49,237 nt of DNA from Bacilli bacterium (GTDB taxonomy: Bacteria; Bacillota_I; Bacilli_A; RF39; UBA660). Where the stretch lies: the NCBI GenBank assembly GCA_017461465.1, contig JAFTYN010000152.1, positions 1 to 49,237 of the forward strand. Direction: 5' to 3'. Positions 4,696 through 25,666 of the stretch are shown here, one piece after another. Position numbers and translations under genes: made by a program. Within the stretch, counting starts at the first letter, position 1; each line of letters opens with the position of its first letter. Under the pieces are notes generated by a model. That model was not told the DNA's origin, searched no databases, and was given only the letters and a program-made list of their open reading frames with translations.

Positions 4696-5421
4696 CTATA
4701 TAGTTTGTGCTTTTTTTACTTTAATTAATACTCCTACTGCAACAATCAATATAACTACTATACCAAAAATAATTAGAATACCATTATTGCTTTCATTATT
4801 TTCTTTTTTCACTATATCATAAGCATAATAACTTGTATAATCTAATTCTGCACTTGTAATTTTATTATTATTTAATAAGTAAGTGATAGTCATACCACTA
4901 GAATTTCCATAAGAACGATAATAATATACAATTTTATTTTCCTCTTTAACATTATCCATATATCGATAACGATAATTTGTATTATCTTTAGTATCTTTAT
5001 ATAGTATTGGCCATTCATCTTTATAAATAATTGCCACTTCACTATTTGCATTAACTATTGCATACTTTCTTCCTGATTCATCTTCATTGATGAATTTTAA
5101 TTTATTATAATAAACATGATATTCATTATCCTTTAAAAATACCCCATCTGAATCTTTTTCCTCTGTATAAGATTCAGGATTAAGTAGCATATTTTTAGTA
5201 AGATTTATACTTTTTTCATTTGATTCTTCATAATTTTTCAAATCATTTATTATTTTAATACTTTCATTTGGAAGTTTAGAATAATCATAATATATATCTT
5301 GATATAATTTTATAATCACATTAGACATTTCTTCTGTTTGACTTAGTAAATCCTTATTAGAGCAACCACATACACTAAAGACTAAAATAGATATAAAAAT
5401 TAATTTTAAATATTTTTTCAT
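4696..5421 (-). CDS. lipoprotein with C-terminal TM anchor, paralogue of 6631..7260 (function unknown)
   Basis: Signal peptide MKKYLKLIFISILVFSVCGC (lipobox-like VCGC). Tyr/Asn/Lys-rich ectodomain and a C-terminal hydrophobic helix GILIIFGIVVILIVAVGVLI. Blocks shared with 6631..7260: SNVIIKLY/SNIVVNLF and FLKDNEYHVYYN/YIKNNKCYVNYN. Confidence 0.6.
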   Translation of the reverse strand: MKKYLKLIFISILVFSVCGCSNKDLLSQTEEMSNVIIKLYQDIYYDYSKLPNESIKIINDLKNYEESNEKSINLTKNMLLNPESYTEEKDSDGVFLKDNEYHVYYNKLKFINEDESGRKYAIVNANSEVAIIYKDEWPILYKDTKDNTNYRYRYMDNVKEENKIVYYYRSYGNSSGMTITYLLNNNKITSAELDYTSYYAYDIVKKENNESNNGILIIFGIVVILIVAVGVLIKVKKAQTI

Positions 5422-5430
5422 CTATTCACC

Positions 5431-6570
5431 TCATTTAGCAGTATATGCAACAGCATACATAAAACCGCATTTTCCAAGTTCATTACATCTATTTTTGTGA
5501 TTATAAAATTTATTCCATAAATTTTCTAAAGTGTATGTTCCATTATTACTACCATTACCTGGATCAAGTAAAACAACTTCACCATTAGTTGCTGGGGTAA
5601 AAACAACGTAATGTCCTGGTATTAAAACCTCTATTGCTTTATTAGCTTTTAATGCATCTCTTATTTTAGTTAATTTTGCATCTTTTGATAATCCAGAACC
5701 ACGATAAAATAATACTTGAGCATTCATATCATATTTATTTAGCATATTTTGATTATATAAAGCAGCATCTTCAATTGCTCCCTTATTTGGTGATATTCCA
5801 GGATGAATATAAGCATGAACTGTTTTTGGATTAATATTACCATCATTATTTAAACCACTTGCTATCATAGCTAACGATGAATATCCACATCCAGATGAAC
5901 ATATAGTACTAGAACTACTACCAAATTTAACGCTTTTCCATCTTGAATCACACTGATTATAATATGGTAAATTAAGGGTATTACTTACTGAACCACTACT
6001 ACTACCTGATTTAACTCCACCACCATCATCTCTTTGTTTTCTTTTTGCTTCTTCTTCTTTTTTCTTTTCTTCTTCTTTACGTTTTTCTTCTTCTTTTATT
6101 TTTTTATCTACTTCTTTTAATCTAGTAGTAAATGTTTCTTTTAATTCCTCATCTTTTACTTTATTTACAGCAAGTTTTGCATCATCGTATATTAATCGTG
6201 ATAAATTTTGTTCTGCATTTACTACTAAACTATCTGCAATATTAATATATGCAGCGTCTACATATTCAGAATTAGCATTTTCAAAACAAGCTGCATATTC
6301 ATAATTTGAATCAGCTATTCCTATTACAAAATCTAAAATATATGGAACTAAAAAGATCAAGATTAAGCCTATAAATTTTTGAGGTATTCTTCTTACATTT
6401 TTACTTACTGCAGATTGATCTTGTGCCATAACTGCCTTAGCAATATCAATAGTTGTCATAATTATTACTGCTATTGGACCAATTATACATAATAATTTAA
6501 TTATTAATCTTACTATAACCATAACAGAAAGTATATCTGGATTATTACATGCTGCTATTACTAAACTCAT
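5431..6570 (-). CDS. membrane-hairpin-anchored C39-like (papain-fold) cysteine peptidase, probable cell-wall hydrolase
   Basis: N-terminus MSLVIAACNNPD, two TM helices around a basic loop (SKNVRRIPQKF), a Lys/Glu coiled-coil spacer and a G/S linker. These are followed by PYYNQ...SSGCGYSSLAMI (Cys), PGHYVVF (His) and LLDPG (Asp), as in Peptidase_C39_2-type domains. AGGAG lies 9 nt upstream of the ATG, and an in-frame TGA 2 codons upstream prevents extension. Confidence 0.6.
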   Translation of the reverse strand: MSLVIAACNNPDILSVMVIVRLIIKLLCIIGPIAVIIMTTIDIAKAVMAQDQSAVSKNVRRIPQKFIGLILIFLVPYILDFVIGIADSNYEYAACFENANSEYVDAAYINIADSLVVNAEQNLSRLIYDDAKLAVNKVKDEELKETFTTRLKEVDKKIKEEEKRKEEEKKKEEEAKRKQRDDGGGVKSGSSSGSVSNTLNLPYYNQCDSRWKSVKFGSSSSTICSSGCGYSSLAMIASGLNNDGNINPKTVHAYIHPGISPNKGAIEDAALYNQNMLNKYDMNAQVLFYRGSGLSKDAKLTKIRDALKANKAIEVLIPGHYVVFTPATNGEVVLLDPGNGSNNGTYTLENLWNKFYNHKNRCNELGKCGFMYAVAYTAK

Positions 6571-6601: not shown

Positions 6602-6636
6602 TAAAAAAAGAATAACAAAGATAAACTTTGTTATTC
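6602..6636 (-). terminator. rho-independent terminator after lipoprotein 6631..7260, overlapping its stop
   Basis: Perfect 11-bp stem GAATAACAAAG/CTTTGTTATTC (6610..6636) followed on the minus strand by TTTTTTT. Confidence 0.65.
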
Positions 6637-7260
6637 ACTAGTTATATAATTATTTATATTTTCAAAACTTGTTTCTATTTTCTCTATATCTTTACCATCT
6701 AGATACATTTTAACAACTAATCCAGTTCCATCATATGAAGAGTTATATAAGAAATAATATCCTTTATCAAACTTTACACTTTGTTTATATACATAATCAT
6801 ATTTAGGATTATCCTTATTTTCTTCATAATTCATATAAAAATCACTTTCGTATAAGATAGTATAATAATTATTACAAACTAAATATTTTTGTAGTTCTAA
6901 TTCGTAAGAAGGGTCATTTTCTTCTTTTATATAATCAAACCCTAAATCATTATAATTTACATAGCATTTATTATTTTTAATATATACTTCTTTAGAATTA
7001 GGTTCATTAACTTTATATTCATCATTCTTAATAATAAAATCAGTTAAATCTATCTCATGATTTTTATGAGTTAATGTATTTAAGTATTCATCTATTTTCT
7101 TTTTATCTTTTTCATCTATATCTTTAGAATCATATTTTTCACTAGTAAATAGATTAACTACAATATTAGATATATTTTTATAGTATTCAAAATTCTTATT
7201 TGTACATCCAGTTAGTAAGACTAATCCTAATAACATTAATATAGTTAATTTCTTTTTCAT
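6631..7260 (-). CDS. lipoprotein, paralogue of 4696..5421 (function unknown)
   Basis: Signal peptide MKKKLTILMLLGLVLLTGC with the canonical lipobox LLTGC. It starts 1 nt after the stop of the M23 gene. The Tyr/Asn/Asp-rich ectodomain shares blocks with 4696..5421. Confidence 0.65.
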   Translation of the reverse strand: MKKKLTILMLLGLVLLTGCTNKNFEYYKNISNIVVNLFTSEKYDSKDIDEKDKKKIDEYLNTLTHKNHEIDLTDFIIKNDEYKVNEPNSKEVYIKNNKCYVNYNDLGFDYIKEENDPSYELELQKYLVCNNYYTILYESDFYMNYEENKDNPKYDYVYKQSVKFDKGYYFLYNSSYDGTGLVVKMYLDGKDIEKIETSFENINNYITSE

Positions 7261-7261
7261 C

Positions 7262-8545
7262 TTATCCTCCTGCCTTTATTTTATATCCTTTAGCATGTTT
7301 AGGCATTCCGTATATAGCTTCTATTTTCCAAGTTGTTAAGCCAGAATTATAATTACTACCTGGATATATAGTCATATGAAGGTGTGGTGCCCAACCAATA
7401 CTTGTACTAGTACCTGCTGCATTACCAACAAATCCAAGTAATTCACCTTTTTTTACTTTACGATTACAAGATGAAGTACTACTACACCTATATCTTATAC
7501 CAGACATATGTGTTAAAAAGATTGTATCTACTGACTGACCTTGTACAGTTTGAGCTTTATTTAATTTTATAGATACACTATAAGCTGTTTCATCTCCACC
7601 TTTATTACTTGTATGTCCCCACTCAGAATACATTAAAGTACCATCTACTGGTGAATATATTGGAGTTCCAAAATAGGCCATAAAATCTATACCATTATGC
7701 TCATAAACAAAATTATAAACTCCATCTACCGGTGTGGTTGGCATTATAAAAATACCATATGTTTTATAATTAGTAAGTTGTGTTGGAATAGAACCATAAT
7801 TTTTAGGCCATGCTCCTAATGGAAGACCAGTTTTAGAATCTTTTGGATAAACAAAATTACTAGCGCTTATTACTTTTCTTCCGGCCCAGTAATTAACTGC
7901 TGCTGAAGGATCAGGCTCTCTAGATTGTGCTACACCTGGCTGAGCTATTCCTTTTCCACTACTAGAATATGAACCAGATGTCGATAAATTGCCAGTTCCT
8001 GATACATTAGAACCATCATTTTTATTTTGTTCTTGTTCAGCTTTCTTTTTTGCTTCTTCCTCTTCTTTTTTCTTCTTTATTGTTTCTTTTACAACATCTA
8101 TTCTTTCATTATAATTAGCTTGTTTTTCTTCATCTTTAAGCTTATTAATTGCAAGTTTAGCTTCTTCTACATCTAAATAGTTAAGTGATTCTTCTGCTTT
8201 TAAAACAGCATTATCCGCTTTTGTCAAATATGCCTGGGCAATATTTTCTTTTGTAGCTCCTACAAAACATGAATTATATTCATAAGAAGAATCAACTATA
8301 TTCATAACTACCTGAATAAAAGTTGGGACAAAAAATATTAATACCATGGCAATCATTTTCTTTGGTATTTTTGCTTTTTCCTTAGCAACCATATTTTCAT
8401 CATTGGCAATTACCGTCTTGACTAAACTAATCATCATAGCAATTATTAGCGCTATTGGCGCAACAATTTTTAATACATTAATCATTTGATTTACTAAATA
8501 CATAACAGATAGTAAATCAGGATTGCTACATACTGTTAATAACAT
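7262..8545 (-). CDS. membrane-hairpin-anchored M23 (LytM-type) metallopeptidase, probable peptidoglycan endopeptidase
   Basis: M23 motifs are HNGIDF (HxxxD), THMSGI...KKGELLGFVGN and APHLHMTIY (HxH). The N-terminal Cys, two-TM hairpin and K/E coiled coil are paralogous to 5431..6570. The ORF track starts at TTG 8590. I prefer ATG 8545 (MLLTVCSNPD) because GGAGG lies 7 nt upstream and the N-terminus then matches its paralogue. Confidence 0.75.
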   Translation of the reverse strand: MLLTVCSNPDLLSVMYLVNQMINVLKIVAPIALIIAMMISLVKTVIANDENMVAKEKAKIPKKMIAMVLIFFVPTFIQVVMNIVDSSYEYNSCFVGATKENIAQAYLTKADNAVLKAEESLNYLDVEEAKLAINKLKDEEKQANYNERIDVVKETIKKKKEEEEAKKKAEQEQNKNDGSNVSGTGNLSTSGSYSSSGKGIAQPGVAQSREPDPSAAVNYWAGRKVISASNFVYPKDSKTGLPLGAWPKNYGSIPTQLTNYKTYGIFIMPTTPVDGVYNFVYEHNGIDFMAYFGTPIYSPVDGTLMYSEWGHTSNKGGDETAYSVSIKLNKAQTVQGQSVDTIFLTHMSGIRYRCSSTSSCNRKVKKGELLGFVGNAAGTSTSIGWAPHLHMTIYPGSNYNSGLTTWKIEAIYGMPKHAKGYKIKAGG

Positions 8546-10852: not shown

Positions 10853-10880
10853 ATAAAAGAAAAAATGCTAAAAAGCATTT
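10853..10880 (-). terminator. rho-independent terminator after pilin gene 10880..11281
   Basis: Minus strand reads AATGCT-TTTT-AGCATT followed by TTTTTCTTTT, directly after the stop. Confidence 0.5.
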
Positions 10881-11281
10881 TAATTCGAGCATATAGTATT
10901 GCAATCTTCTTTAAATTCAATTGGACTTCTAGATATATCAAAATTAGTAGTTAACTCTTCTTCATTAATTTCTTCTACACTTCTTACTCCATCACTAAGT
11001 TCATATAAAACAATATCTTCACCAATTAATTTCCAGTAGCCAGTAAATTTAGTACCTTTAATTTCTAAATTATCAATACAACCACATGAACGATTATATT
11101 CTATAACTTCTATCGTTCTAATATTTTTTACTAATGTTTTAACATTATCCCTAAATAAATTATCTTTAGCTTCATTAGTTATACGAGTATAAATTGGCAT
11201 TACAATACTACCAATTATCCCAAGAACAATTACAGCTGCTAGAAGTTCCATAAGTGTAAAACCTTTATTTTTTCTATTCAT
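10880..11281 (-). CDS. prepilin-type (type IV pilin/pseudopilin-like) protein
   Basis: MNRKNKG|FTLMELLAAVIVLGIIGSIV is a class III signal with Glu+5. Small 133-aa protein with 4 Cys in the globular part (CGC...C..IC). Confidence 0.75.
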   Translation of the reverse strand: MNRKNKGFTLMELLAAVIVLGIIGSIVMPIYTRITNEAKDNLFRDNVKTLVKNIRTIEVIEYNRSCGCIDNLEIKGTKFTGYWKLIGEDIVLYELSDGVRSVEEINEEELTTNFDISRSPIEFKEDCNTICSN

Positions 11282-15033: not shown

Positions 15034-18000
15034 TTATCTAGTTAAGGTTATTGATGCAGCGTTTCCTGTTGGGAATGTTCCTGCAGCATATGTATTCCCA
15101 TCACTGCCTGTAAATGCATAAGATGTAATGTTTGACATAGAGACAGTTGAAGGTATATTTTTAGGAGTTTTAATTGTTTTTAGATTCGTTGTACCATTAA
15201 ACATAGATGACATATAATCTAAATTAGAACTTAATGACCATGAACTTAAATCTAGTGATGTTAAACTAGTAATTCCATAGAACATAGATGAAAGAGTTGT
15301 CACCTTTTCTACGTTCCATCCTGATACATTTATATTAGATATTTTCGAATTATAAAACATATAGGACATACTTGTTACATTCGCTGTATTAAAATGTCTT
15401 AAATCTAATGAAGCTACATTTGTAGTATCAAACATAGATGACATACTTGTAACTTTACCCGTATTCCATCCTGACACATTTATTGTTGTGGCTTTTGCGG
15501 TTTCAAACATAGCTGACATACTTGTTACATTCGCTGTATTAAAATGACTTAAATCTAATGTTGCTACATTCGTGCCGTAAAACATATACGACATGTTTGT
15601 AACTTTCCCTGTGTTCCATCCTGATGTATTTATTGCGGTAGCTTTAGAACCATAAAACATATATGACATATTAGTTACATTTGATACATCGAGAGATGAT
15701 AAATTTAATGTCGTAGCAGCAGTAGCGCGAAACATATATGACATATTTGTTACTTTTGAGGTATTCCATCCTGAAACATTTATTGTTGTGGCTTTTGAAC
15801 TATAAAACATCGAATTCATACTTGTAACATTTGCTGTATTGAAATGACTTAAATCTAATGTTGCTACATTCGTGCCGTAAAACATAGACGACATACTTGT
15901 AACTTTTCCTGTGTTCCATCCTGATGTATTTATTGCGGTAGCTTTAGAATTATAGAACATACATGACATATTAGTTACATTTGATGTATTAAAATGAGAC
16001 AAATCTAGTGTTGTCGCAGCAGTATCACTAAACATATATGACATATTTGTTACCTGACTAGTATCCCATCCTGACACATTTATTGTTGGAGCTTTCATGT
16101 TATAAAACATATACGACATATTAGTCACATTTGAAGTATTCCATGTCGATAAATCTAAACTTTCTACTGCTTCTAAATATTCAAACATACCACTCATATT
16201 AGTAACCCTATGTGTATTAAAATGACTTAGATTTAAGTTTAGTAAAACATTATTACCATCATCCATATAATATCTATCAGCACGTCTCATTGAAAACATA
16301 TAGCTCATATCAGTTACATTTGATGTATCCCATCCGTTTAAATTTATTGATGACAAATTATAATTATAATGAAACATCGAAGACATATCTTTAACTTTTT
16401 CAGTATCAAAGGAACTCAAATCAAGTGATTCAATATAACATAGTCCCTCAAACATATGACTCATATCTTCTACATTAGCTGTATCCCATCCTGAAAAATC
16501 AATTTCAGCGATATCTGAACAATAATATGTTTGTGATGGGCGAAAAACAAGATTTTCAATACTATTATTCTTATTTAATCCATCTAAAATACTAGGTGTT
16601 AATTTTTTTGTATCACTCTTTAAATAGTCATCATATGCATATGATGAATCATGTCCAGCAAACATATATGACATATCTACAACATTTGAAGTATCAAAAG
16701 AACTAAGATCTAACGTTCCTAATGAGCACATTCCTTCAAACATATGGCTCATATTTTGAACACTAGATGTATCCCAATTAGTTAAATCTAAATTTGTTAT
16801 ATTAGAGCAATTAAATACTGAAGCATCGTCTCCTATAACAACCAACTGTTCAATATTGTTTTTATCATTAAAATTATTTAAATAATTTATTTTAAAATCA
16901 TCCAATATATTAGCACTAATAGGATCTACATCTTCTTCATCATAACCAGCAAACATATATGACATATTTACAACATCTGAAGTATCATAATTTTCAAAAT
17001 TTACTGTATATAAGTTATCTAAACGATAAAACCAGTATGAAGAATCTATATTGGCTTTTATTGTACCATTACTTCCAATATACATATTGTAATATCCTGC
17101 ATTAGATGCACTTTCTATAATCCAACCTTTTATAGAATTATCTTTGGCTTCTGATAAATCCCAAGTTGCTACTGCATTTGCAGGAATATCAACATTATCT
17201 ATAAAGGAAATAGAAGTAATATTAGGTGCATATGAAGAACTTCTAAAACCACCCGATAAAAGTCCTGCTGAATAAGTTTCTAAATAAGAATATTTAGAAA
17301 CTAAAGTAATTTTTCTGTTTTTAGAAACTGAATTGCCACTTTTATCAGTTGCTATATAAGTAATGATATATTCACCTGGTCTATTATAATTAATAGTACC
17401 ACTAGTCTTAATTGTAGGAGCTACCCCACTATTATCTGTAGCAGTAACTCCTTCCATTAGATTTAAAGTTTCTCCTATTCCTATTTCTAAATCTTCAGGA
17501 ACATTTAGTTCTGGTGCTGTTGTATCTACTACATATACTTTTCTTGTTAATGTTTTTGATATACCATTTTCAATAATTGTATATTTAGCATGATAATCTT
17601 TTCCTAATACTTTTAAATTAACATTGTTTGATTTTACTATACTAGAACTCATATCTTCACCAGCTGAACTTTTTGCAGTTGCACCTGGATCAAATGAAGC
17701 ATAAGTTAAAGTACTATCATTTGTTATTTCTATTTTTTGAGGATTATCTCCTAACAAGTATATTGATGGTGTTTTAGATACTGCTTCACAATCTTTTAAA
17801 TTACCATCTATAAGCTCTTCATCTAAAAAAGTATATTCATATGTATCTTTTTCATTATCTTTTACTCTTGTTATTTTAAACTGCATTGTATTTGCTAAAC
17901 AAGTACTTGTTTTAGGATTTTTTATTTCATATTCGATATAACCTTGCTCTTTTAAATCTGCTAAAGTTACTATTATTTCTTCGCCATCTTCATATATTAG

Positions 18001-18186
18001 TTCTTTATTATCTGTAACCCAGTTTCTTAATCCATCTTTTAATGTATCTTTTGTTCTATTATAAGCATTATTCTTTGTTTTAGTTATAATATAGTCTACT
18101 GATGGAATTGCTATTAATGCTATTAAACCTATTAATATTACTACTCCTATTAACTCTACAAGTGTAAAACCTTTTCTACTTTTCAT
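15034..18186 (-). CDS. modular giant pilin: prepilin N-terminus + pilin module + two Ig-like (DUF5011-type) domains + ~20 DUF285/BspA-type leucine-rich repeats
   Basis: MKSRKG|FTLVELIGVVILIGLIALI. Residues 1 to about 133 align with the 134-aa pilin encoded upstream, including both Cys. Next come LLGDNP...DPGATAKSSAGEDMS and TTAPEL...VTATDNSG...GEYIITYIATDKSGN (Ig-like). About 20 repeats of the form (D/N)TxxV(T/V)xMSxMF follow. Confidence 0.8.
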   Translation of the reverse strand: MKSRKGFTLVELIGVVILIGLIALIAIPSVDYIITKTKNNAYNRTKDTLKDGLRNWVTDNKELIYEDGEEIIVTLADLKEQGYIEYEIKNPKTSTCLANTMQFKITRVKDNEKDTYEYTFLDEELIDGNLKDCEAVSKTPSIYLLGDNPQKIEITNDSTLTYASFDPGATAKSSAGEDMSSSIVKSNNVNLKVLGKDYHAKYTIIENGISKTLTRKVYVVDTTAPELNVPEDLEIGIGETLNLMEGVTATDNSGVAPTIKTSGTINYNRPGEYIITYIATDKSGNSVSKNRKITLVSKYSYLETYSAGLLSGGFRSSSYAPNITSISFIDNVDIPANAVATWDLSEAKDNSIKGWIIESASNAGYYNMYIGSNGTIKANIDSSYWFYRLDNLYTVNFENYDTSDVVNMSYMFAGYDEEDVDPISANILDDFKINYLNNFNDKNNIEQLVVIGDDASVFNCSNITNLDLTNWDTSSVQNMSHMFEGMCSLGTLDLSSFDTSNVVDMSYMFAGHDSSYAYDDYLKSDTKKLTPSILDGLNKNNSIENLVFRPSQTYYCSDIAEIDFSGWDTANVEDMSHMFEGLCYIESLDLSSFDTEKVKDMSSMFHYNYNLSSINLNGWDTSNVTDMSYMFSMRRADRYYMDDGNNVLLNLNLSHFNTHRVTNMSGMFEYLEAVESLDLSTWNTSNVTNMSYMFYNMKAPTINVSGWDTSQVTNMSYMFSDTAATTLDLSHFNTSNVTNMSCMFYNSKATAINTSGWNTGKVTSMSSMFYGTNVATLDLSHFNTANVTSMNSMFYSSKATTINVSGWNTSKVTNMSYMFRATAATTLNLSSLDVSNVTNMSYMFYGSKATAINTSGWNTGKVTNMSYMFYGTNVATLDLSHFNTANVTSMSAMFETAKATTINVSGWNTGKVTSMSSMFDTTNVASLDLRHFNTANVTSMSYMFYNSKISNINVSGWNVEKVTTLSSMFYGITSLTSLDLSSWSLSSNLDYMSSMFNGTTNLKTIKTPKNIPSTVSMSNITSYAFTGSDGNTYAAGTFPTGNAASITLTR
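15190..17010 (-). repeat. coding tandem-repeat array (DUF285/BspA LRR units, ~69-75 nt) with a near-identical 300-bp higher-order repeat at 15481..15780 / 15781..16080
   Basis: Lines 15481-15780 and 15781-16080 align at an offset of exactly 300 nt. One shared run of 43 identical nt is ATGACTTAAATCTAATGTTGCTACATTCGTGCCGTAAAACATA. Confidence 0.85.
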
Positions 18187-18580
18187 ATTCTACCTCACAA
18201 CTTTCTGTAAATCTTATATTATTTTCATCTTGAAATTTATAAGTATAATTATTATTTTTTCTAGTAATAACTATTACTGTATCATTAGAAATGCACATTT
18301 CATTAATTGGATTAATAACATCTACTTCTATAAATCCACCTAGTTTTAAATCTCCTAAAGTTATATATACATAATCGCCATCTACGGTAGGAAGCTCCAT
18401 CATATTAGATGCTCCATAATCTTTAGCAGCACTTAATATTACCTCTTTTTGATTTTCATAACCTTTTTCTCTAGTTGACTTAATAACTGCATCTATAGTT
18501 GGTATTGTTATGAGCGCTAAAACACCAATTAGTGTTATGACTGCTAAAATTTCTACTAAAGTAAATCCTCTATTTCTCAT
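18176..18580 (-). CDS. prepilin-type (type IV pilin-like) protein, first gene of pilin operon
   Basis: MRNRG|FTLVEILAVITLIGVLALITIP with two Cys (EMCISN...ESCE) typical of a pilin D-region. It overlaps the next gene by 11 nt. Confidence 0.8.
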   Translation of the reverse strand: MRNRGFTLVEILAVITLIGVLALITIPTIDAVIKSTREKGYENQKEVILSAAKDYGASNMMELPTVDGDYVYITLGDLKLGGFIEVDVINPINEMCISNDTVIVITRKNNNYTYKFQDENNIRFTESCEVEYEK

Positions 18581-19886: not shown

Positions 19887-21140
19887 CTAAAAGTTAAGCA
19901 TTATCCATTCTGGTTTAAATATTAATAGTAAGCCTATAATAATCATTATTATACCGCCAACTAAATGTGCAAATTTACTATATTTTGTAGTAACACCACT
20001 TATCTTTAAAGTTAACATTGCTATTATAAATATAGCTAAATCATCTATCAAGAAAAATAATATATATATTAAAATATATCCTATTTTCATTAATCCATCT
20101 ATATTATTTAATTCTAGTATTGTAATAAAGATAGTTGGAAAGCCAGCTGAGCAAGCAAGTTCTACTAAGTTAACACTAGCTGCTAAAGCTATTATACCAA
20201 TTAGAGCTATAAGTAGGTTTTGCTCTGCTGTCAAAGCTTTTATTTTTGTAAAATACTTCTTTCTTTTCTTTTCATCAACCACATGGCATCCATCTTCTTT
20301 GGCTGTTAAATAACTTCTTAAGTTAAGAACGCCTCCTATAATGGCAACTAAAGCAATTATTCTTCTTACCCATGTTATAGCTGCAAAACTAAGTACTACT
20401 GATAATCCTAACATTGCTAAGAAATAAACAAATGCTGATGTTACTAAGAATGTTGTTCCTAAAAGCCACATTTTCTTTCTATTTTTCATATTAAATAACA
20501 TATTAATTAGAAATAATAAAATCCAAAGTGCACATGGGTTAAAACCATCTATAAATCCTAATATAATAGCAATTAATGGTATTGATGCTTCTTTAGCATC
20601 TATTTTTCCCAATAAAGGAATATCATATTCTGTATTTTCTTTTTTCTTTGTTTCTTCTTTTTCTTCTAACTTAGGTTCTTCATCTATTTCTTCTTTTGGT
20701 TCTTCTAAAGCTGGTGTTTCTACTTCAGTATTATCATTATAATAACTATCTAAAGTTGCTTTCATTCTTGAACCAATAGAAGCCATGTATCCATTAAAAA
20801 ATTCATCACCTATAACAGTAAAAGGCACTCCAGTAGAAGTAGAGCCCATTCTATCTTTGGCAATTTTCATATAATCATAATTAGTACCAGAAGATACTTC
20901 GTAACTTCTAATAACTAAGTTCGGATAATCTTTTTTGATACTTTCTAAAAACTTTTTTTCTGCTTTACAGTGAGAACAAGTATCACTATGAAAAAAATAT
21001 ATAGTTACAGTTTCACTTTTCTTTTCTCCAACAATATCATAGATTTTATCTTCAAACTGCTTAGCATTTACTAATTGAGGAAATATTAAAAATGATATTA
21101 CTAATAAAAATGTTAATAAATATTTCTTTAATTTATTCAT
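19887..21140 (-). CDS. secreted thioredoxin/glutaredoxin-fold domain (CSHC) fused to a CcdA/DsbD-like polytopic membrane domain
   Basis: Signal peptide ending in VNA. The Trx-like fold shows FFHSDTCSHCKAEKKF and a cis-Pro GVPFTVIG. A Glu/Lys linker leads to about 6 TM helices with membrane-embedded Cys in GFNPCALWILLF and ELACSAGFP. Confidence 0.55.
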   Translation of the reverse strand: MNKLKKYLLTFLLVISFLIFPQLVNAKQFEDKIYDIVGEKKSETVTIYFFHSDTCSHCKAEKKFLESIKKDYPNLVIRSYEVSSGTNYDYMKIAKDRMGSTSTGVPFTVIGDEFFNGYMASIGSRMKATLDSYYNDNTEVETPALEEPKEEIDEEPKLEEKEETKKKENTEYDIPLLGKIDAKEASIPLIAIILGFIDGFNPCALWILLFLINMLFNMKNRKKMWLLGTTFLVTSAFVYFLAMLGLSVVLSFAAITWVRRIIALVAIIGGVLNLRSYLTAKEDGCHVVDEKKRKKYFTKIKALTAEQNLLIALIGIIALAASVNLVELACSAGFPTIFITILELNNIDGLMKIGYILIYILFFLIDDLAIFIIAMLTLKISGVTTKYSKFAHLVGGIIMIIIGLLLIFKPEWIMLNF

Positions 21141-21393
21141 ACTTTTTTATAACACTTTCTATATCTTCAAATTTCTTTTCCCCTATTAATCTTTCTAGTT
21201 CAGTATCATCTTTATAAAATATAGTAACTGGAAGTATATCTCCAATATTATATTTTTTTACTTCTTCTTCATCCATATCTAAGTCTAAACTTTTTACTTC
21301 TATATTAGGATACTCTTTATTAATTTTATCCCATACTTTATGCATCACAATACATCCAGGGCACCACATAGCCCCTATTTTTATTACTTTCAT
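21133..21393 (-). CDS. small cytoplasmic thioredoxin
   Basis: 86 aa with the WCPGC active site and no signal peptide. It overlaps the downstream gene by 8 nt. Confidence 0.8.
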   Translation of the reverse strand: MKVIKIGAMWCPGCIVMHKVWDKINKEYPNIEVKSLDLDMDEEEVKKYNIGDILPVTIFYKDDTELERLIGEKKFEDIESVIKKYE

Positions 21394-23178: not shown

Positions 23179-23204
23179 TAAAAAAACAAAGCAAATTGCT
23201 TTGT
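23179..23204 (-). terminator. rho-independent terminator after 23205..23603
   Basis: Minus strand reads ACAAAGCA-ATT-TGCTTTGT (23186..23204) followed by TTTTTTT. Confidence 0.6.
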
Positions 23205-23603
23205 TTAGTATATACCACATGTTCCGGTTGATGAACCAGATATTTCAAATAATGAAAGTACAAAGTTAAGTAATGATGGTACTAGGAATAATAGACCTAT
23301 TGCTATTAATCTAGTAACAAATCTTTTATTAGCTTTAGCCATACTATCATCATTAGAACCAAATATAGCTTTTACATAATCTGCTATTTGAAGAATTACC
23401 GCTAAAGCAATACCTGCTATTCTAATATAATCTAAAATAGTTTGTAATAGTTCTTTTAATTCTCCACCATCTACAATTTCGCATCCTTCTTTAGCAACTA
23501 ATTCTACTTTTGTTTCAATTTCTACTGCTAAAGCAGGCTCTACCAAAATAAATATTAATAATCCAATAAATAAAATATTATACCATTTAAAAAACTTCTT
23601 CAT
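23205..23603 (-). CDS. secreted protein consisting of signal peptide + Cys-flanked two-helix membrane hairpin, C-terminus GTCGIY (unknown family; VirB2/TrbC-like topology)
   Basis: Preferred start MKKFFKW at 23603 (TAATG overlap with the upstream stop). Signal peptide ends ...EPALA. The segment EGCEIV...ELLQTILDYIRIAGIALAVILQIADYVKAIFGSNDDSMAKANKRFVTRLIAIGLLFLVPSLLNFVLSLF...GTCGIY is roughly 80% identical at DNA level (by eye) to the 3' end of 24073..25179. Confidence 0.6.
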   Translation of the reverse strand: MKKFFKWYNILFIGLLIFILVEPALAVEIETKVELVAKEGCEIVDGGELKELLQTILDYIRIAGIALAVILQIADYVKAIFGSNDDSMAKANKRFVTRLIAIGLLFLVPSLLNFVLSLFEISGSSTGTCGIY

Positions 23604-23995
23604 TAAAAACCACACTCTAAATTTACTTTCATTTCATAATCATCCTCTGTATAAGGATTTTGTGGATATATTATAACATAAGTTTCGTTATAATTACATT
23701 GTTTTTTAGTTTGATTATTAACAAATTCTTTTGGATCTTCATAATAAATAGCGGAAATAAGTTCTGATAAACCAACTTTCATTCCGTCCTCTGTATAACT
23801 ACCTAACTCATCTACATTATTAACAGTAGGTAAATATACTTTTTGATAATATGTTGCACCTAATACACCAAGTTTATTTTTTAATCTTTCCTCTTGATTA
23901 TCATGCTCAATACTTTTTCTAGCTATACCAAGAACCATAGTTGCTGCAAGCATTATAGCAAATATAATTATAGGTTTCTTAAAATCAGTCTGCAT
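23603..23995 (-). CDS. bitopic membrane protein ending in ECGF, paralogue of 25182..25601 (function unknown)
   Basis: Preferred start MQTDFKK at 23995 (AGGAGG lies 8 nt upstream; the ORF-track start at 24013 is TTG). One TM helix, then a domain with two conserved Cys (KKQCNY...LECGF). Confidence 0.6.
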   Translation of the reverse strand: MQTDFKKPIIIFAIMLAATMVLGIARKSIEHDNQEERLKNKLGVLGATYYQKVYLPTVNNVDELGSYTEDGMKVGLSELISAIYYEDPKEFVNNQTKKQCNYNETYVIIYPQNPYTEDDYEMKVNLECGF

Positions 23996-24045
23996 ATATA
24001 ATTCCTCCTGCAATATAAGTATAATATATTTTTAAAAGAAAAGCA

Positions 24046-24074
24046 AAGAAAAAACCAAAGTTAAACTTTGGTTT
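24046..24074 (-). terminator. rho-independent terminator after 24073..25179, overlapping its stop
   Basis: Minus strand reads AAACCAAAG-TTTAA-CTTTGGTTT followed by TTTTCTTT. Confidence 0.6.
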
Positions 24075-25179
24075 AAAAAATTCCACATGTTCCAGCTTCG
24101 GCAGCATCTAAGATATTAAATAATGAAAGTACAAAGTTTAATATTGAAGGTATTAAAAATAATATTCCTATTGCTATTAATCTAGTTGAAAAACGTTTAT
24201 TTGCTTTAGCCATTCCATCATCTGATGAACCAAATATCGCCTTTATATAGTCCGCTATTTGAAGAATTACAGCAAGGGATATACCAGCTATTCTAATATA
24301 ATCTAAAATAGTTTGCAATAATTCAGTAAGTTCTGAAGATAATAAAGCACACCCCTCTTTAGCTTCCATATCTACATCAACACTTATATTAACGCCATCT
24401 GATTTAGTACCCCCACCACTTTTTTTATCTTCTTCTGTTTGTGGTTTATTTTGTTCTTCTAAAGTTTCTGCATCTGGCGTTTCAGAACCAACTACTGTTG
24501 TACTCATTCCACCTTGAGAAGTTTTAGAAATACCACATGTAGGTGTTCCACCTCTTTCAGTACAATTCAAATGAAGCGAAGGACAACTTAATTTACCATT
24601 TGAACCTACAAAGTCACTTGCTTTAATTTCACTACTACCTACTTGATATTTACTAGTTAATTCTGATTCTAGTGTTTTACCATCAGTATGGAAGGTCACC
24701 TTTCCACCATAACTACAGCTTATTCTTTCTGTTTTTGGTTCATCTTCTTTAACTTCAGTTAATGGTTTATTATTGTTCGTTGAATCACTAGTCAAAGCTA
24801 TTTTTGATGCTCCTGACTGACTAGTAAATGTTAAAGAATATGTTGCTGATCTACCACTCGAAGATGTTATTTTTTGATATAAAGTGCTAGGACAAGATAG
24901 TTTATTTGTTGACTTATTAATAAAGTTAGCTGATGTTATATTGTCCATATTATTTGTTACTGAACCACCTGCTATATTTTGAGTTGGGACACATGACTTT
25001 TTTAAATCAGCTGTACCTGTTCCAGTTGCTTCTAGAGAAAAAGTGCATTTAAAAAGCCCAACATTATAAACACACGTAGCACATGAATATTTATTGCAGT
25101 CACCTGCATTAGCTACATCAATATTAACAAAAAATGCTAAAAATAATAAAAATAATAAAAACTTAAAATTCCTTTTCAT
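24073..25179 (-). CDS. secreted Cys-rich protein with C-terminal Cys-flanked two-helix membrane hairpin, C-terminus GTCGIF
   Basis: Preferred start MKRNFKF at 25179. Signal peptide ends ...VANA. The roughly 270-aa Cys/Ser/Thr-rich ectodomain carries an internal duplication (ITSANFINKSTNKLSCPS / IKASDFVGSNGKLSCPS). An acidic linker is followed by the same hairpin module as 23205..23603. Confidence 0.6.
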   Translation of the reverse strand: MKRNFKFLLFLLFLAFFVNIDVANAGDCNKYSCATCVYNVGLFKCTFSLEATGTGTADLKKSCVPTQNIAGGSVTNNMDNITSANFINKSTNKLSCPSTLYQKITSSSGRSATYSLTFTSQSGASKIALTSDSTNNNKPLTEVKEDEPKTERISCSYGGKVTFHTDGKTLESELTSKYQVGSSEIKASDFVGSNGKLSCPSLHLNCTERGGTPTCGISKTSQGGMSTTVVGSETPDAETLEEQNKPQTEEDKKSGGGTKSDGVNISVDVDMEAKEGCALLSSELTELLQTILDYIRIAGISLAVILQIADYIKAIFGSSDDGMAKANKRFSTRLIAIGILFLIPSILNFVLSLFNILDAAEAGTCGIF

Positions 25180-25181
25180 AA

Positions 25182-25601
25182 CTAAAACCCACATTCTAAT
25201 TGATATTCTATTTCATAATCCTTTTTTTGGTATGGTTCCTTTGGATAAATAACTACATAACTTTTATCATAATCACATTTTTCATTTACTTTTTCATTAA
25301 TAAAAAATTCAGGATCTTCATTATATACATTTAGAATTAAAGTTCCTAAATCAACTTTTATTCCAATATCCTTTAATATATCTAGATATTCTTCTTTTTC
25401 TCCATCGATTGAGTCATAATAAATTTCTTCATAATACACAACTCCTAAACTCTCTAGTCGATAATTTAGTTCATCTTCTTTATTTCCTTTACCTAAAAGA
25501 CTAGAACCAATCATTAAGGCAATTGAAATAATAATAAAAACTATTAATAAAATTATTTTTGTTCTGTTTTCTTCTAAAAAATCACTAAAACTATAATCCA
25601 T
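25182..25601 (-). CDS. bitopic membrane protein ending in ECGF, paralogue of 23603..23995
   Basis: Preferred start MDYSFSDF at 25601 (AGGAG lies 8 nt upstream). One TM helix, then GIKVDLGTLILNVYNEDPEFF...NEKCDYDKSYVVIYPKEPY...YQLECGF. Confidence 0.6.
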   Translation of the reverse strand: MDYSFSDFLEENRTKIILLIVFIIISIALMIGSSLLGKGNKEDELNYRLESLGVVYYEEIYYDSIDGEKEEYLDILKDIGIKVDLGTLILNVYNEDPEFFINEKVNEKCDYDKSYVVIYPKEPYQKKDYEIEYQLECGF

Positions 25602-25625
25602 ACTTATTACTCCTATTCTAAAAAC

Positions 25626-25634
25626 ATTATAACA
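25626..25634 (-). promoter_or_regulatory. extended -10 promoter (TGTTATAAT) of the 25601..24073 unit
   Basis: Minus strand reads TTTATGTTATAATGTTTTTAGAATAGGAG, immediately after the upstream terminator. Confidence 0.45.
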
Positions 25635-25635
25635 T

Positions 25636-25666
25636 AAAAAAAAAGATAATAAAATAATTATCATCT
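25636..25666 (-). terminator. rho-independent terminator after metallophosphoesterase gene
   Basis: Minus strand reads AGATGATAA-TTATT-TTATTATCT (one G-U pair) followed by TTTTTTTT. Confidence 0.5.

Follow-up and report, generated by a model that had tools for sequence, protein, structure and literature searches.

VirB2-like pilins belong to the type IV secretion systems (T4SSs); Pfam family PF18895 (T4SS_pilin) is one of the profiles that were used to find them in Patescibacteria (PMC12102498). Monoderm bacteria have been described as lacking VirB2 homologues (Guglielmini et al. 2014, PMC4027160), and the Patescibacteria are listed in a 2025 review (PMC12857230) as the single exception to the absence of VirB2-type pilins from Gram-positive bacteria. 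Here we describe four genes, designated A, B, C and D, on a stretch of 49,237 nt (the window) from a Bacilli bacterium (Bacillota_I; RF39; UBA660; assembly GCA_017461465.1, contig JAFTYN010000152.1, positions 1–49,237, forward strand). Their products have in common a module of about 90 residues, which consists of a Cys, a helix, a first transmembrane (TM) helix, a basic loop, a second TM helix and a further Cys. The genes form four two-gene operons with the partner genes E, F, G and H in the combinations F–B, E–A, D–H and C–G. We propose that the module is probably a T4SS-pilin-type hairpin of the PF18895 family, which has been domesticated in the chromosome as an anchor with both ends outside the membrane, holding surface ectodomains in A and B and cell-wall hydrolases in C and D.

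The closest described systems are the chromosomal PF18895 pilin arrays of Patescibacteria, such as those of Saccharibacteria TM7x and S. epibionticum ML1 (PMC12102498, PMC12857230). The genes of the window resemble them in several respects: protein A exceeds the cut-off of the same Pfam model, short proteins with a two-helix hairpin are encoded in the chromosome, and the copies are tandem and variable in sequence, sometimes with an interleaved non-pilin gene and often not adjoining virB4. They differ in that the host belongs to the Bacilli (Bacillota), that the N-terminal ectodomains of B and its orthologues are long, that half of the copies are fused to peptidoglycan hydrolases, and that no T4SS genes are in view in the 49-kb window.

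A second comparison is with VirB2 of the Agrobacterium Ti plasmid and TrbC of RP4, which likewise have a long signal peptide, two hydrophobic helices and a short basic loop; relatives of the module occupy the same gene position beside VirB3, VirB4 and VirB6. The ends of VirB2/TrbC pilins are joined covalently by head-to-tail cyclisation, whereas the Cys pair of the proteins described here could join the ends by a disulfide bond instead. Further differences are that no sequence relationship was detected, no TraF-like cyclase was seen, the host is monoderm and cargo domains are present. Weak matches also lead to the proteins Mbov_0395 (NF045849) and Mbov_0396/MMCAP2_0566 of Mycoplasma elements of the integrative and conjugative type (ICEs), whose hosts are comparable in being low-GC and Mollicutes-related. 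The scores are 19 bits against a cut-off of 40 and 20 against 70; as a further difference, the Mycoplasma proteins are encoded on ICEs and lack a hydrolase domain.

The proteins C and D can be likened by architecture to PrgK (pCF10), TraG (pIP501) and CwlT (ICEBs1), in which an N-terminal membrane anchor precedes hydrolase domains (M23/LytM, NlpC/P60, CHAP). A membrane-anchored N-terminus has been noted for monoderm VirB1-like hydrolases (Guglielmini 2014, PMC4027160). Unlike these, C and D are encoded outside T4SS loci, and their anchor is a pilin-type hairpin with flanking Cys residues that is followed by a coiled coil. Hydrolases of the PcsB, CwlO and EnvC type have a coiled-coil stalk and end in a CHAP, NlpC/P60 or M23 domain; they are secreted and controlled by FtsEX. 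The combination of coiled coil and hydrolase is found again in C and D, the genes of which are located among ftsK, parE, parC and murD. In contrast to the PcsB type, C and D would be held at the membrane by a hairpin of their own, and no ftsEX was seen in the window.

The shared module and its family

The modules of A, B, C and D are homologous. A profile scan of every open reading frame (ORF) of at least 40 aa detected exactly four copies in the window, namely those of A (E=2.7e-32), B (E=6e-29), C (E=1.9e-29) and D (E=6.6e-31). Smith-Waterman scores between the set A/B and the set C/D were 79–91, compared with 29 ± 5 (maximum 52) for composition-matched shuffled sequences, corresponding to z values of 9.9–12.2. 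A hidden Markov model (HMM) built from the C-terminal-type relatives alone scored C and D with 51 and 60 bits, and an HMM built from the N-terminal-type relatives alone scored A and B with 53 and 46 bits. The modules of A and B are 77% identical to each other. Both Cys residues and the F and P of the second TM helix are invariant in the MAFFT alignment of all four modules.

These results bear out the original prediction that the four ORFs have a hairpin in common, and the shared segments score better than shuffled sequence. The enzymes named as its cargo, C39-like and M23, are likewise correct, as C and D pass the respective Pfam cut-offs. The alignment of about 75 residues that had been reported holds as such but not as strictly gap-free: the stretch from the Cys to the (I/A)G motif comprises 20 residues in B instead of 21, and one or two gaps are required before the second Cys. 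From the consensus pattern, both Cys residues and the F and P of the second TM helix stand, whereas D departs from two motifs, having VAPI in place of (I/A)G(P/I)(I/A) and SLVKT in place of D(I/Y)(A/V)KA.

Protein A is a member of PF18895. It scores 27.3 bits against a gathering threshold of 26.6, and the match covers positions 3–71 of the 71 profile positions. A family can therefore be named, contrary to what had first been stated; this family is nevertheless little studied, and its pilin role is predicted. The profile of the four modules matched 9,178 representative clusters (at 50% identity) at E≤1e-3; with the stricter limit of E≤1e-10 there were 1,745. The counts of domains, termini and classes given below refer to the best 149 relatives of this profile, those of Cys residues and charges to 151 family modules. 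Of the 149 relatives, 59 matched PF18895 at E≤1e-3; other pilin or membrane families do not recur in this set. The NCBIfam model NF045849, describing a 'pilin-like conjugal transfer protein' of Mycoplasma ICEs, gave 19.1 bits with A (E=8e-4) and 13.8 bits with B (E=0.035); its curated cut-off of 40 bits was reached by neither. The module of D aligns to positions 52–141 of NF045889 and to positions 54–140 of NF045848, two models for VirB6-like membrane proteins of Mycoplasma ICEs, with scores far below the cut-offs. The conserved features of the family that are not hydrophobic comprise the two Cys residues, the motif D-x-x-K-A at the end of the first TM helix, the loop S-D-D-x-x-x-K-A-x-K and the motif F-L-x-P. 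A tblastn search of the PLSDB plasmids with A and with the pilin of locus L019 returned no match; at BLAST sensitivity the family thus appears to be essentially absent from the sequenced plasmids of cultured bacteria.

The module is located at the N-terminus in 56 and at the C-terminus in 85 of the 149 relatives. Proteins of the N-terminal type (N-class) start with M-x-L-x-x-C, have no signal peptide and continue after the hairpin with a coiled coil and usually a peptidoglycan hydrolase; the cargo includes NlpC/P60 (10 proteins), CHAP (8), C39_2 (8) and M23 (5), as well as VanY, lysozyme and amidases. Proteins of the C-terminal type (C-class) consist of a signal peptide, an ectodomain of highly variable length and the hairpin. 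In 61 of the 85 C-class proteins the stop codon follows three residues after the second Cys, giving the end C-x-x-x-COOH, for example TCGIK. The HMM of their own class scores A and B with 124 and 116 bits and C and D with 120 and 123 bits, as against the cross-class values given above. The two sets are two old and diverged paralogous subclasses of pilin-like proteins with thousands of relatives each, and the picture of one anchor with swapped cargo was misleading in this respect.

The C-x-x-x ends of the C-class (TCGIK, TCGIF) look like a CaaX box. In locus L013 (3345–6178) a gene for a pilin with two modules directly follows a gene encoding an ABC2 permease fused to an Rce1-like domain of the CPBP/CaaX-protease family. 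This neighbour could point to processing of the C-terminus but may also be coincidental. The first Cys of the N-class lies in a lipobox-like sequence (IAAC, LTVC). Its processing as a lipoprotein was considered and rejected, since only 5–7 residues precede the Cys and the ORF cannot be extended upstream.

Genomic context of the family

Outside the lineage of the window, five of the six readable contexts of family members are conjugative T4SS operons (loci L007/L008, L013, L019 and L025, and a locus of GCA_016648615.1). The sixth, L018, is not a T4SS locus. The common gene order is one or more pilin-like genes, a VirB6/TrbL_4-like gene, a VirB3-like gene of about 105 aa, a TraC-like gene and VirB4 (DUF87/AAA_10). 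The VirB2/TrbC-like architecture that had been predicted from the window is therefore supported by the match to PF18895 and by the position of these distant relatives upstream of VirB6/TrbL, VirB3-like and VirB4 genes. Locus L019 additionally encodes a VirD4 coupling protein. A gene for a large hydrolase follows VirB4 in L007 and L019, and the hydrolases of the sampled T4SS loci do not carry the module. Two module genes stand in tandem in L007 and L019; the second one is of the C-class and groups with A and B according to the class HMMs. Over its full length, the VirB4 protein of L007 shares 28–29% identity with the VirB4 proteins from Bacillus thuringiensis pBMB68 and from a Mycoplasmatota plasmid. 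Homologues of the partner proteins E and F were not found in the T4SS loci.

Monoderm T4SS operons with a family member in the pilin position carry genes for VirB4, VirD4, TrbL, sortase and Tad-like proteins. Taken together, the comparisons show that genes predicted to encode PF18895-type pilin-like proteins are common in the T4SS operons of low-GC monoderms and suggest their recruitment as wall-hydrolase anchors. A family of 9,178 clusters challenges the stated rule that Gram-positive T4SSs have no VirB2-type pilins.

The plasmid pBMB68 encodes a 126-aa 'hypothetical' protein between the VirD4 and TrbL genes, just upstream of TrbL (NZ_CP010581.1 19686–20066; L024 7649–8029). Besides a signal peptide, this protein shows two TM helices and the loop SDNDPADIAHANKR; its matches to PF18895 (E=0.023) and to the pilin-like model from Mycoplasma (E=1e-4) are weak. 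Possibly, a VirB2-like protein has gone unrecognised here on a conjugative plasmid of a cultured Gram-positive bacterium. In the Mycoplasmatota plasmid CP074574.1, residues 63–136 of a VirB6/TrbL_4-like protein (L023 7449–8675) resemble the pilin module, as do positions ~52–141 of the models for Mbov_0396/MMCAP2_0566 (NF045889/NF045848), with E=1.9e-5 for the C-class HMM. Perhaps the VirB6-like proteins of these systems include a pilin-like hairpin in their N-terminal part; alternatively, a shared TM composition may account for the match. Some of the T4SS loci also carry a Tad-like pilus set (L007 1–9512, L019 1–9942, L024 20280–21824), comprising a CpaF/T2SSE ATPase, TadB/C-like and RcpC/SAF proteins, DUF5411 and a Flp-like gene of 53–61 aa, together with a sortase and a surface protein of about 900 aa. 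As this set stands beside pilin-like T4SS genes, the conjugative elements seem to combine two pilus-type systems.

The window has a GC content of about 26% and is chromosomal, and almost all of its genes are located on the minus strand. Its gene content includes parC, parE, ftsK, murD, thrS, dnaI, rseP, cdsA, uppS and rpsP. The entry MBQ8872240.1, a 'hypothetical protein' from a metagenome-assembled genome (MAG) labelled 'Bacilli bacterium', is 100% identical to protein A, and the protein was found on contigs of up to 164 kb. The operons F–B and E–A are located between metallophosphatase and cysteine desulfurase genes. A scan of the genome collection with a narrow alignment found four other species-level MAGs, all of which contain one or two pairs of an E-like gene and a pilin-like gene upstream of cysteine desulfurase and thioredoxin genes. 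The ectodomains of the pilin-like proteins in these MAGs range from 247 to 595 aa, and the neighbours of the pairs are genes for CTP synthase, BacA, DUF6020 and glycosyltransferase. The pair is kept in L010 and L014–L017. In a strain of the same species (L005 2921–3711, compared with 23205–25664 of the window) only E–A is present and F–B is missing, which indicates that the copy number of the pilin-like array varies within the species.

The operons D–H and C–G are located between ftsK, which encodes a canonical FtsK with the gamma domain, and parE. In L011 and L012, ftsK is followed by the genes for an M23 hydrolase and a lipoprotein, then by those for a second hydrolase and a lipoprotein, and finally by parE and parC; the second hydrolase carries NlpC/P60 where C has C39_2. 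The lipoprotein H is 45% identical to the 207-aa product of the gene after the M23 hydrolase in L011, and G is 31% identical (E=9e-30) to the 249-aa product of the gene after the NlpC/P60 hydrolase. An IS110-family transposase gene lies between the two hydrolase–lipoprotein operons in L011 (8508–9710) and is absent from this position in L012. A third setting is L020, where an N-class CHAP hydrolase and a lipoprotein are encoded as a pair among dnaE, dnaI and ackA. The N-class hydrolases are therefore found in the housekeeping chromosome in all three readable settings; members of the C-class occur elsewhere in T4SS operons. A comparison of G and H with the lipoprotein encoded after the hydrolase in L007 gave an alignment confined to the signal peptide, whereas the partner lipoprotein of L020 is homologous to that L007 protein (E=4e-16).

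Topology, proposed roles and competing explanations

By hydropathy analysis, A and B contain two TM helices in addition to a signal peptide, and C and D contain two at the N-terminus. The loop contains on average 4.3 Lys and Arg residues (net charge +1.8), compared with 2.0 and 0.2 in the outer flanks; the N-terminal flank is neutral and the C-terminal flank has a net negative charge. According to the positive-inside rule, this family-wide pattern places the loop in the cytoplasm and both Cys residues outside, so that an ends-out hairpin is the predicted topology, in agreement with the original prediction. Both Cys residues are kept in at least 134 of the 151 modules. They could form a disulfide bond that ties the ends of the hairpin, which fits their conservation and the charge pattern. 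In the AlphaFold2 (AF2) model, mature A forms a helical hairpin whose helices span residues 21–55 and 59–92; the confidence measure pLDDT is 70–82 in the helices and averages 65 over the whole model.

On this basis the following model can be put forward. The module would insert with both ends outside and with the Lys/Arg-rich loop in the cytoplasm, and the near-invariant Cys pair, lying just outside the membrane, could tie the ends together by a disulfide bond. In A and B the signal peptide would be removed, and the C-terminal hairpin would hold at the surface an ectodomain that ranges from almost none in A through about 250 aa in B to as much as about 500 aa in sister species; each of the two would be co-translated with a small bitopic partner (E and F, respectively). 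In C and D the chain would begin 5–7 residues before the first Cys and run through the hairpin and the coiled-coil stalk to the peptidoglycan hydrolase, and a lipoprotein partner (G and H, respectively) would be provided by the next gene. A and B are most probably variable, possibly oligomeric proteins that the hairpin anchors at the surface. For C and D the most likely role is that of housekeeping enzymes of cell-wall remodelling that are tethered to the membrane, possibly related to division, since their operons are located between ftsK and parE/parC and this synteny is conserved. The conserved extracellular Cys pair may replace the cyclisation of pilins. The fusion of the hairpin to every common class of peptidoglycan hydrolase, and its location in housekeeping chromosome beside ftsK and parEC, make it a candidate for a new principle in the anchoring or regulation of autolysins in uncultured gut Bacilli. 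No paper on the hydrolase fusions or on the chromosomal pairs was found in a literature coverage that is incomplete, and their novelty is therefore not proven.

Several results weigh against the reading of the module as a domesticated pilin-type anchor. The PF18895 scores of B (22.3 bits), D (14.7 bits) and C (12.4 bits) are below the gathering threshold; these proteins were assigned together with A because they share the module profile at E ~1e-29 to 1e-32. PF04956 (TrbC) was matched by A only, with 15.4 bits (E=0.021) against a cut-off of 27.9. The comparison of a 51-sequence module profile with five genuine VirB2 proteins by hhalign gave a probability of 0.04%, where the VirB2 alignment was narrow, consisting of alphaproteobacterial Ti and Sym plasmid proteins only, and a broader profile might do better. 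When the PDB was searched by Foldseek with the hairpin model, no match reached E≤0.001; the structures returned (E≥0.73) were generic helical hairpins, and the best of them (E=0.73) was unrelated; a two-helix hairpin is too generic for fold comparison to be diagnostic here. In the AF2 model of A, the pLDDT is below 50 at both Cys-bearing ends, and the model speaks neither for nor against the disulfide bond. As the N-class has no signal peptide, the ends-out topology requires an N-terminal tail of about 28 residues to cross the membrane unaided, which is plausible. Genes for VirB4, VirB6/TrbL, VirD4 or a relaxase are absent from the 49-kb window, and none was seen in ±10-kb stretches of six related genomes, where only some of the non-syntenic ORFs were scanned. 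The search thus covers the window and these stretches, so that 'domesticated' could still mean dispersed and working together with a T4SS. The genomic contexts sampled number 12.

The comparisons with PF04956 and VirB2, to which the original prediction had pointed, thus revealed no detectable similarity, and the tie to canonical VirB2 rests on the architecture, the gene position and the name of PF18895. As far as sequence comparison goes, the module is a member of PF18895 and a positional and architectural analogue of VirB2, not a member of the TrbC/VirB2 family. Its identity as a pilin rests on marginal profile scores together with gene context, the host is uncultured and the function is predicted. 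It could be argued that the likeness to pilins is convergent, the module being a generic, lineage-specific anchor with two TM helices that matches PF18895 through its hydrophobic composition. The marginal scores and the hhalign result would agree with this, as would the lack of a significant structure match and a PDB sequence search with the 51-sequence profile, which returned only rhodopsin and G-protein-coupled receptor noise (E≥0.13). However, the 59 relatives match PF18895 independently while no other membrane family recurs, a family member takes the pilin's place in the T4SS operon of five loci, and the conserved features include the non-hydrophobic ones listed above. The pBMB68 protein upstream of TrbL, with the same loop motif and weak matches to the same models, also argues against convergence, and we consider this explanation very unlikely.

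An explanation that deserves more weight, though we still regard it as rather unlikely, is that the four proteins are working parts of a dispersed chromosomal T4SS or pilus, as in Patescibacteria. A and B would then be polymerised into a fibre bearing ectodomains by a VirB4/VirB6 machine encoded elsewhere, and C and D would act as VirB1-like wall openers. Relatives of the C-class are located immediately upstream of VirB6/TrbL in five independent loci, and about 40% of the patescibacterial pilins are not near virB4 (PMC12102498), an arrangement that the tandem F–B and E–A resemble. The varying copy number, with F–B missing in L005, the variation in ectodomain length between species (132 to 595 aa) and a 959-kb contig of a sister MAG, which hints at a small genome, would also be in line with such a system. 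On the other hand, no T4SS gene was detected in the 49 kb or in stretches of about 20 kb from the six related genomes (some of the non-syntenic ORFs being scanned). None of the three informative contexts places an N-class hydrolase in a T4SS locus, and the hydrolases that belong to T4SS loci are without the module. The E/F-type partners are absent from T4SS loci, and the synteny with division and replication genes also speaks for the domesticated anchor.

A more far-reaching form of the domesticated anchor would be that the pilin of a conjugative T4SS was taken into the core chromosome, with or without a T4SS elsewhere, and forms there a disulfide-closed fibre or raft with hypervariable ectodomains, into which hydrolases are plugged by means of the second subclass, in a walled lineage that possibly has a reduced genome. 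We consider this unlikely. If it were true, Bacillota would have their first VirB2-type pilus system, and autolysins would be anchored in a new way.

Small proteins with two TM helices beside wall hydrolases, and the C39-family name on protein C, could also suggest a holin-like or bacteriocin-export element, in which the hydrolases would be set free by a membrane-permeabilising hairpin, or a secreted peptide would be processed by the C39-like domain. This was rejected as highly improbable after a scan of the PHROGs, where neither A, B nor the modules matched a holin or lysis family and only the hydrolase domains gave matches. The hydrolase is fused to the hairpin and not released from it, and class II holins differ from the predicted topology, in which both ends lie outside and the positive loop lies inside. 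Genes for an ABC exporter, a double-glycine leader peptide or phage proteins are missing nearby, and the replacement of C39_2 by NlpC/P60 at the orthologous position points to wall hydrolysis.

Operon organization and neighbouring genes

The positions of the genes, modules, domains and terminator-like hairpins are given in Table 1. As read from the sequence, the four operons F–B, E–A, D–H and C–G are separate, each with its own -10 box, ribosome binding site (RBS) and terminator. The 'dedicated envelope system' that had been envisaged for the four module genes may exist; the genes are distributed over these four two-gene operons.

Table 1. Positions of the four module genes, their partners and associated elements in the window (ORF, open reading frame; RBS, ribosome binding site; TM, transmembrane)
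Feature	Position	Strand	Description
Gene A	23205..23603	-	132 aa, C-class pilin-like; ORF, PF18895 above cut-off; signal peptide 1–26 by hydropathy, as are the TM helices (predicted cleavage between ALA and VE), short linker, module Cys41...Cys129, end TCGIY
Module of A	23208..23483	-	residues 41–132: Cys, amphipathic helix, first TM helix, basic loop, second TM helix, Cys-G-I-Y-COOH
Gene E	23603..23995	-	130 aa, partner of A; AGGAGG RBS before ATG 23995
Gene B	24073..25179	-	368 aa, C-class pilin-like; ORF; signal peptide, Cys-rich ectodomain of ~250 aa, module Cys277...Cys365, end TCGIF
Module of B	24076..24351	-	residues 277–368; alignment and module HMM
Gene F	25182..25601	-	139 aa, partner of B, paralogue of E
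Gene D	7262..8545	-	427 aa, N-class; ORF, AGGAGG 8 nt ahead of ATG 8545; start MLLTVC, module Cys6...Cys93, Lys/Glu-rich coiled-coil stalk, Peptidase_M23 domain
Module of D	8267..8530	-	residues 6–93 from ATG 8545
Peptidase_M23 domain of D	7358..7702	-	LytM-type peptidoglycan endopeptidase; PF01551, residues 297–411 of the 442-aa ORF
Gene H	6631..7260	-	209 aa, lipoprotein (LLTGC lipobox), partner of D
Gene C	5431..6570	-	379 aa, N-class; ORF, upstream extension impossible; start MSLVIAAC, module Cys8...Cys95, coiled-coil stalk, Peptidase_C39_2-like cysteine peptidase domain
Module of C	6286..6549	-	residues 8–95; alignment and module HMM
Peptidase_C39_2-like domain of C	5560..5976	-	PF13529, residues 199–337
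Gene G	4696..5421	-	241 aa, lipoprotein with C-terminal TM helix, partner of C
Terminator-like hairpin and T-run after A	23180..23204	-	ACAAAGCAATTTGCTTTGTTTTTTT; closes the E–A operon
Terminator-like hairpin and T-run after B	24049..24072	-	ACCAAAGTTTAACTTTGGTTTTTT; boundary of F–B and E–A operons
Terminator-like hairpin and T-run after H	6603..6630	-	boundary of D–H and C–G operons

The start codon of A overlaps the stop codon of E (TAATG), and the two genes are translationally coupled. The stop codon of F precedes the start codon of B by 2 nt. H begins 1 nt after the stop codon of D and G begins 9 nt after that of C; the hairpin after H is followed by a TATAAT box and then by the RBS of C. 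The start codons ATG 8545 (D) and ATG 6570 (C) are backed by the positions of the RBS. From this organization we infer that E, F, G and H are stoichiometric partners of their operon mates. The Peptidase_M23 domain of D scores 38.2 bits (cut-off 28.7) and also matches metallo-endopeptidase and endolysin families of the PHROGs, and the Peptidase_C39_2 domain of C scores 25.7 bits (cut-off 24). G and H are paralogous (E=2e-9), as are E and F, which are 35% identical.

The E protein is built of one N-terminal TM helix and an outside domain of about 80 aa with two conserved Cys residues, and it ends with ECGF. Its family is narrow, with 16 database matches. The AF2 model of the E/F type (pLDDT 80 for E) shows an N-terminal helix of 50 residues and a small alpha/beta head that contains the conserved C100 and C128, a shape resembling the 'lollipop' of type IV pilins. 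A Foldseek search with the E model gave no significant match, the best hit being a type IV pilin of Streptococcus sanguinis (E=0.84), and the prepilin motif G-F-x-x-x-E is absent from E and F.

At 19887–21393 (minus strand) the window contains a thioredoxin gene (WCPGC) that overlaps the gene for a 417-aa protein without a Pfam match, which contains a CSHC motif and a multi-TM domain besides its signal peptide. The pair looks like an extracytoplasmic thiol-disulfide system of the DsbD/CcdA type. It is syntenic with the pilin-like genes in L014–L017 and could be relevant to the conserved pairs of Cys residues in A, B, E and F.

Three genes for type IV prepilin-like proteins with an N-terminal methylation motif are also located in the window (15034–18186, 18176–18580 and 10880–11281, all on the minus strand). 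One of the products has 1050 aa and consists of a prepilin leader, an immunoglobulin-like domain and many DUF285 repeats. This giant protein has 901 aa in other strains and 689–907 aa in sister species, and three extra pilin paralogues are present in L016. It looks like a modular adhesive type IV pilin.

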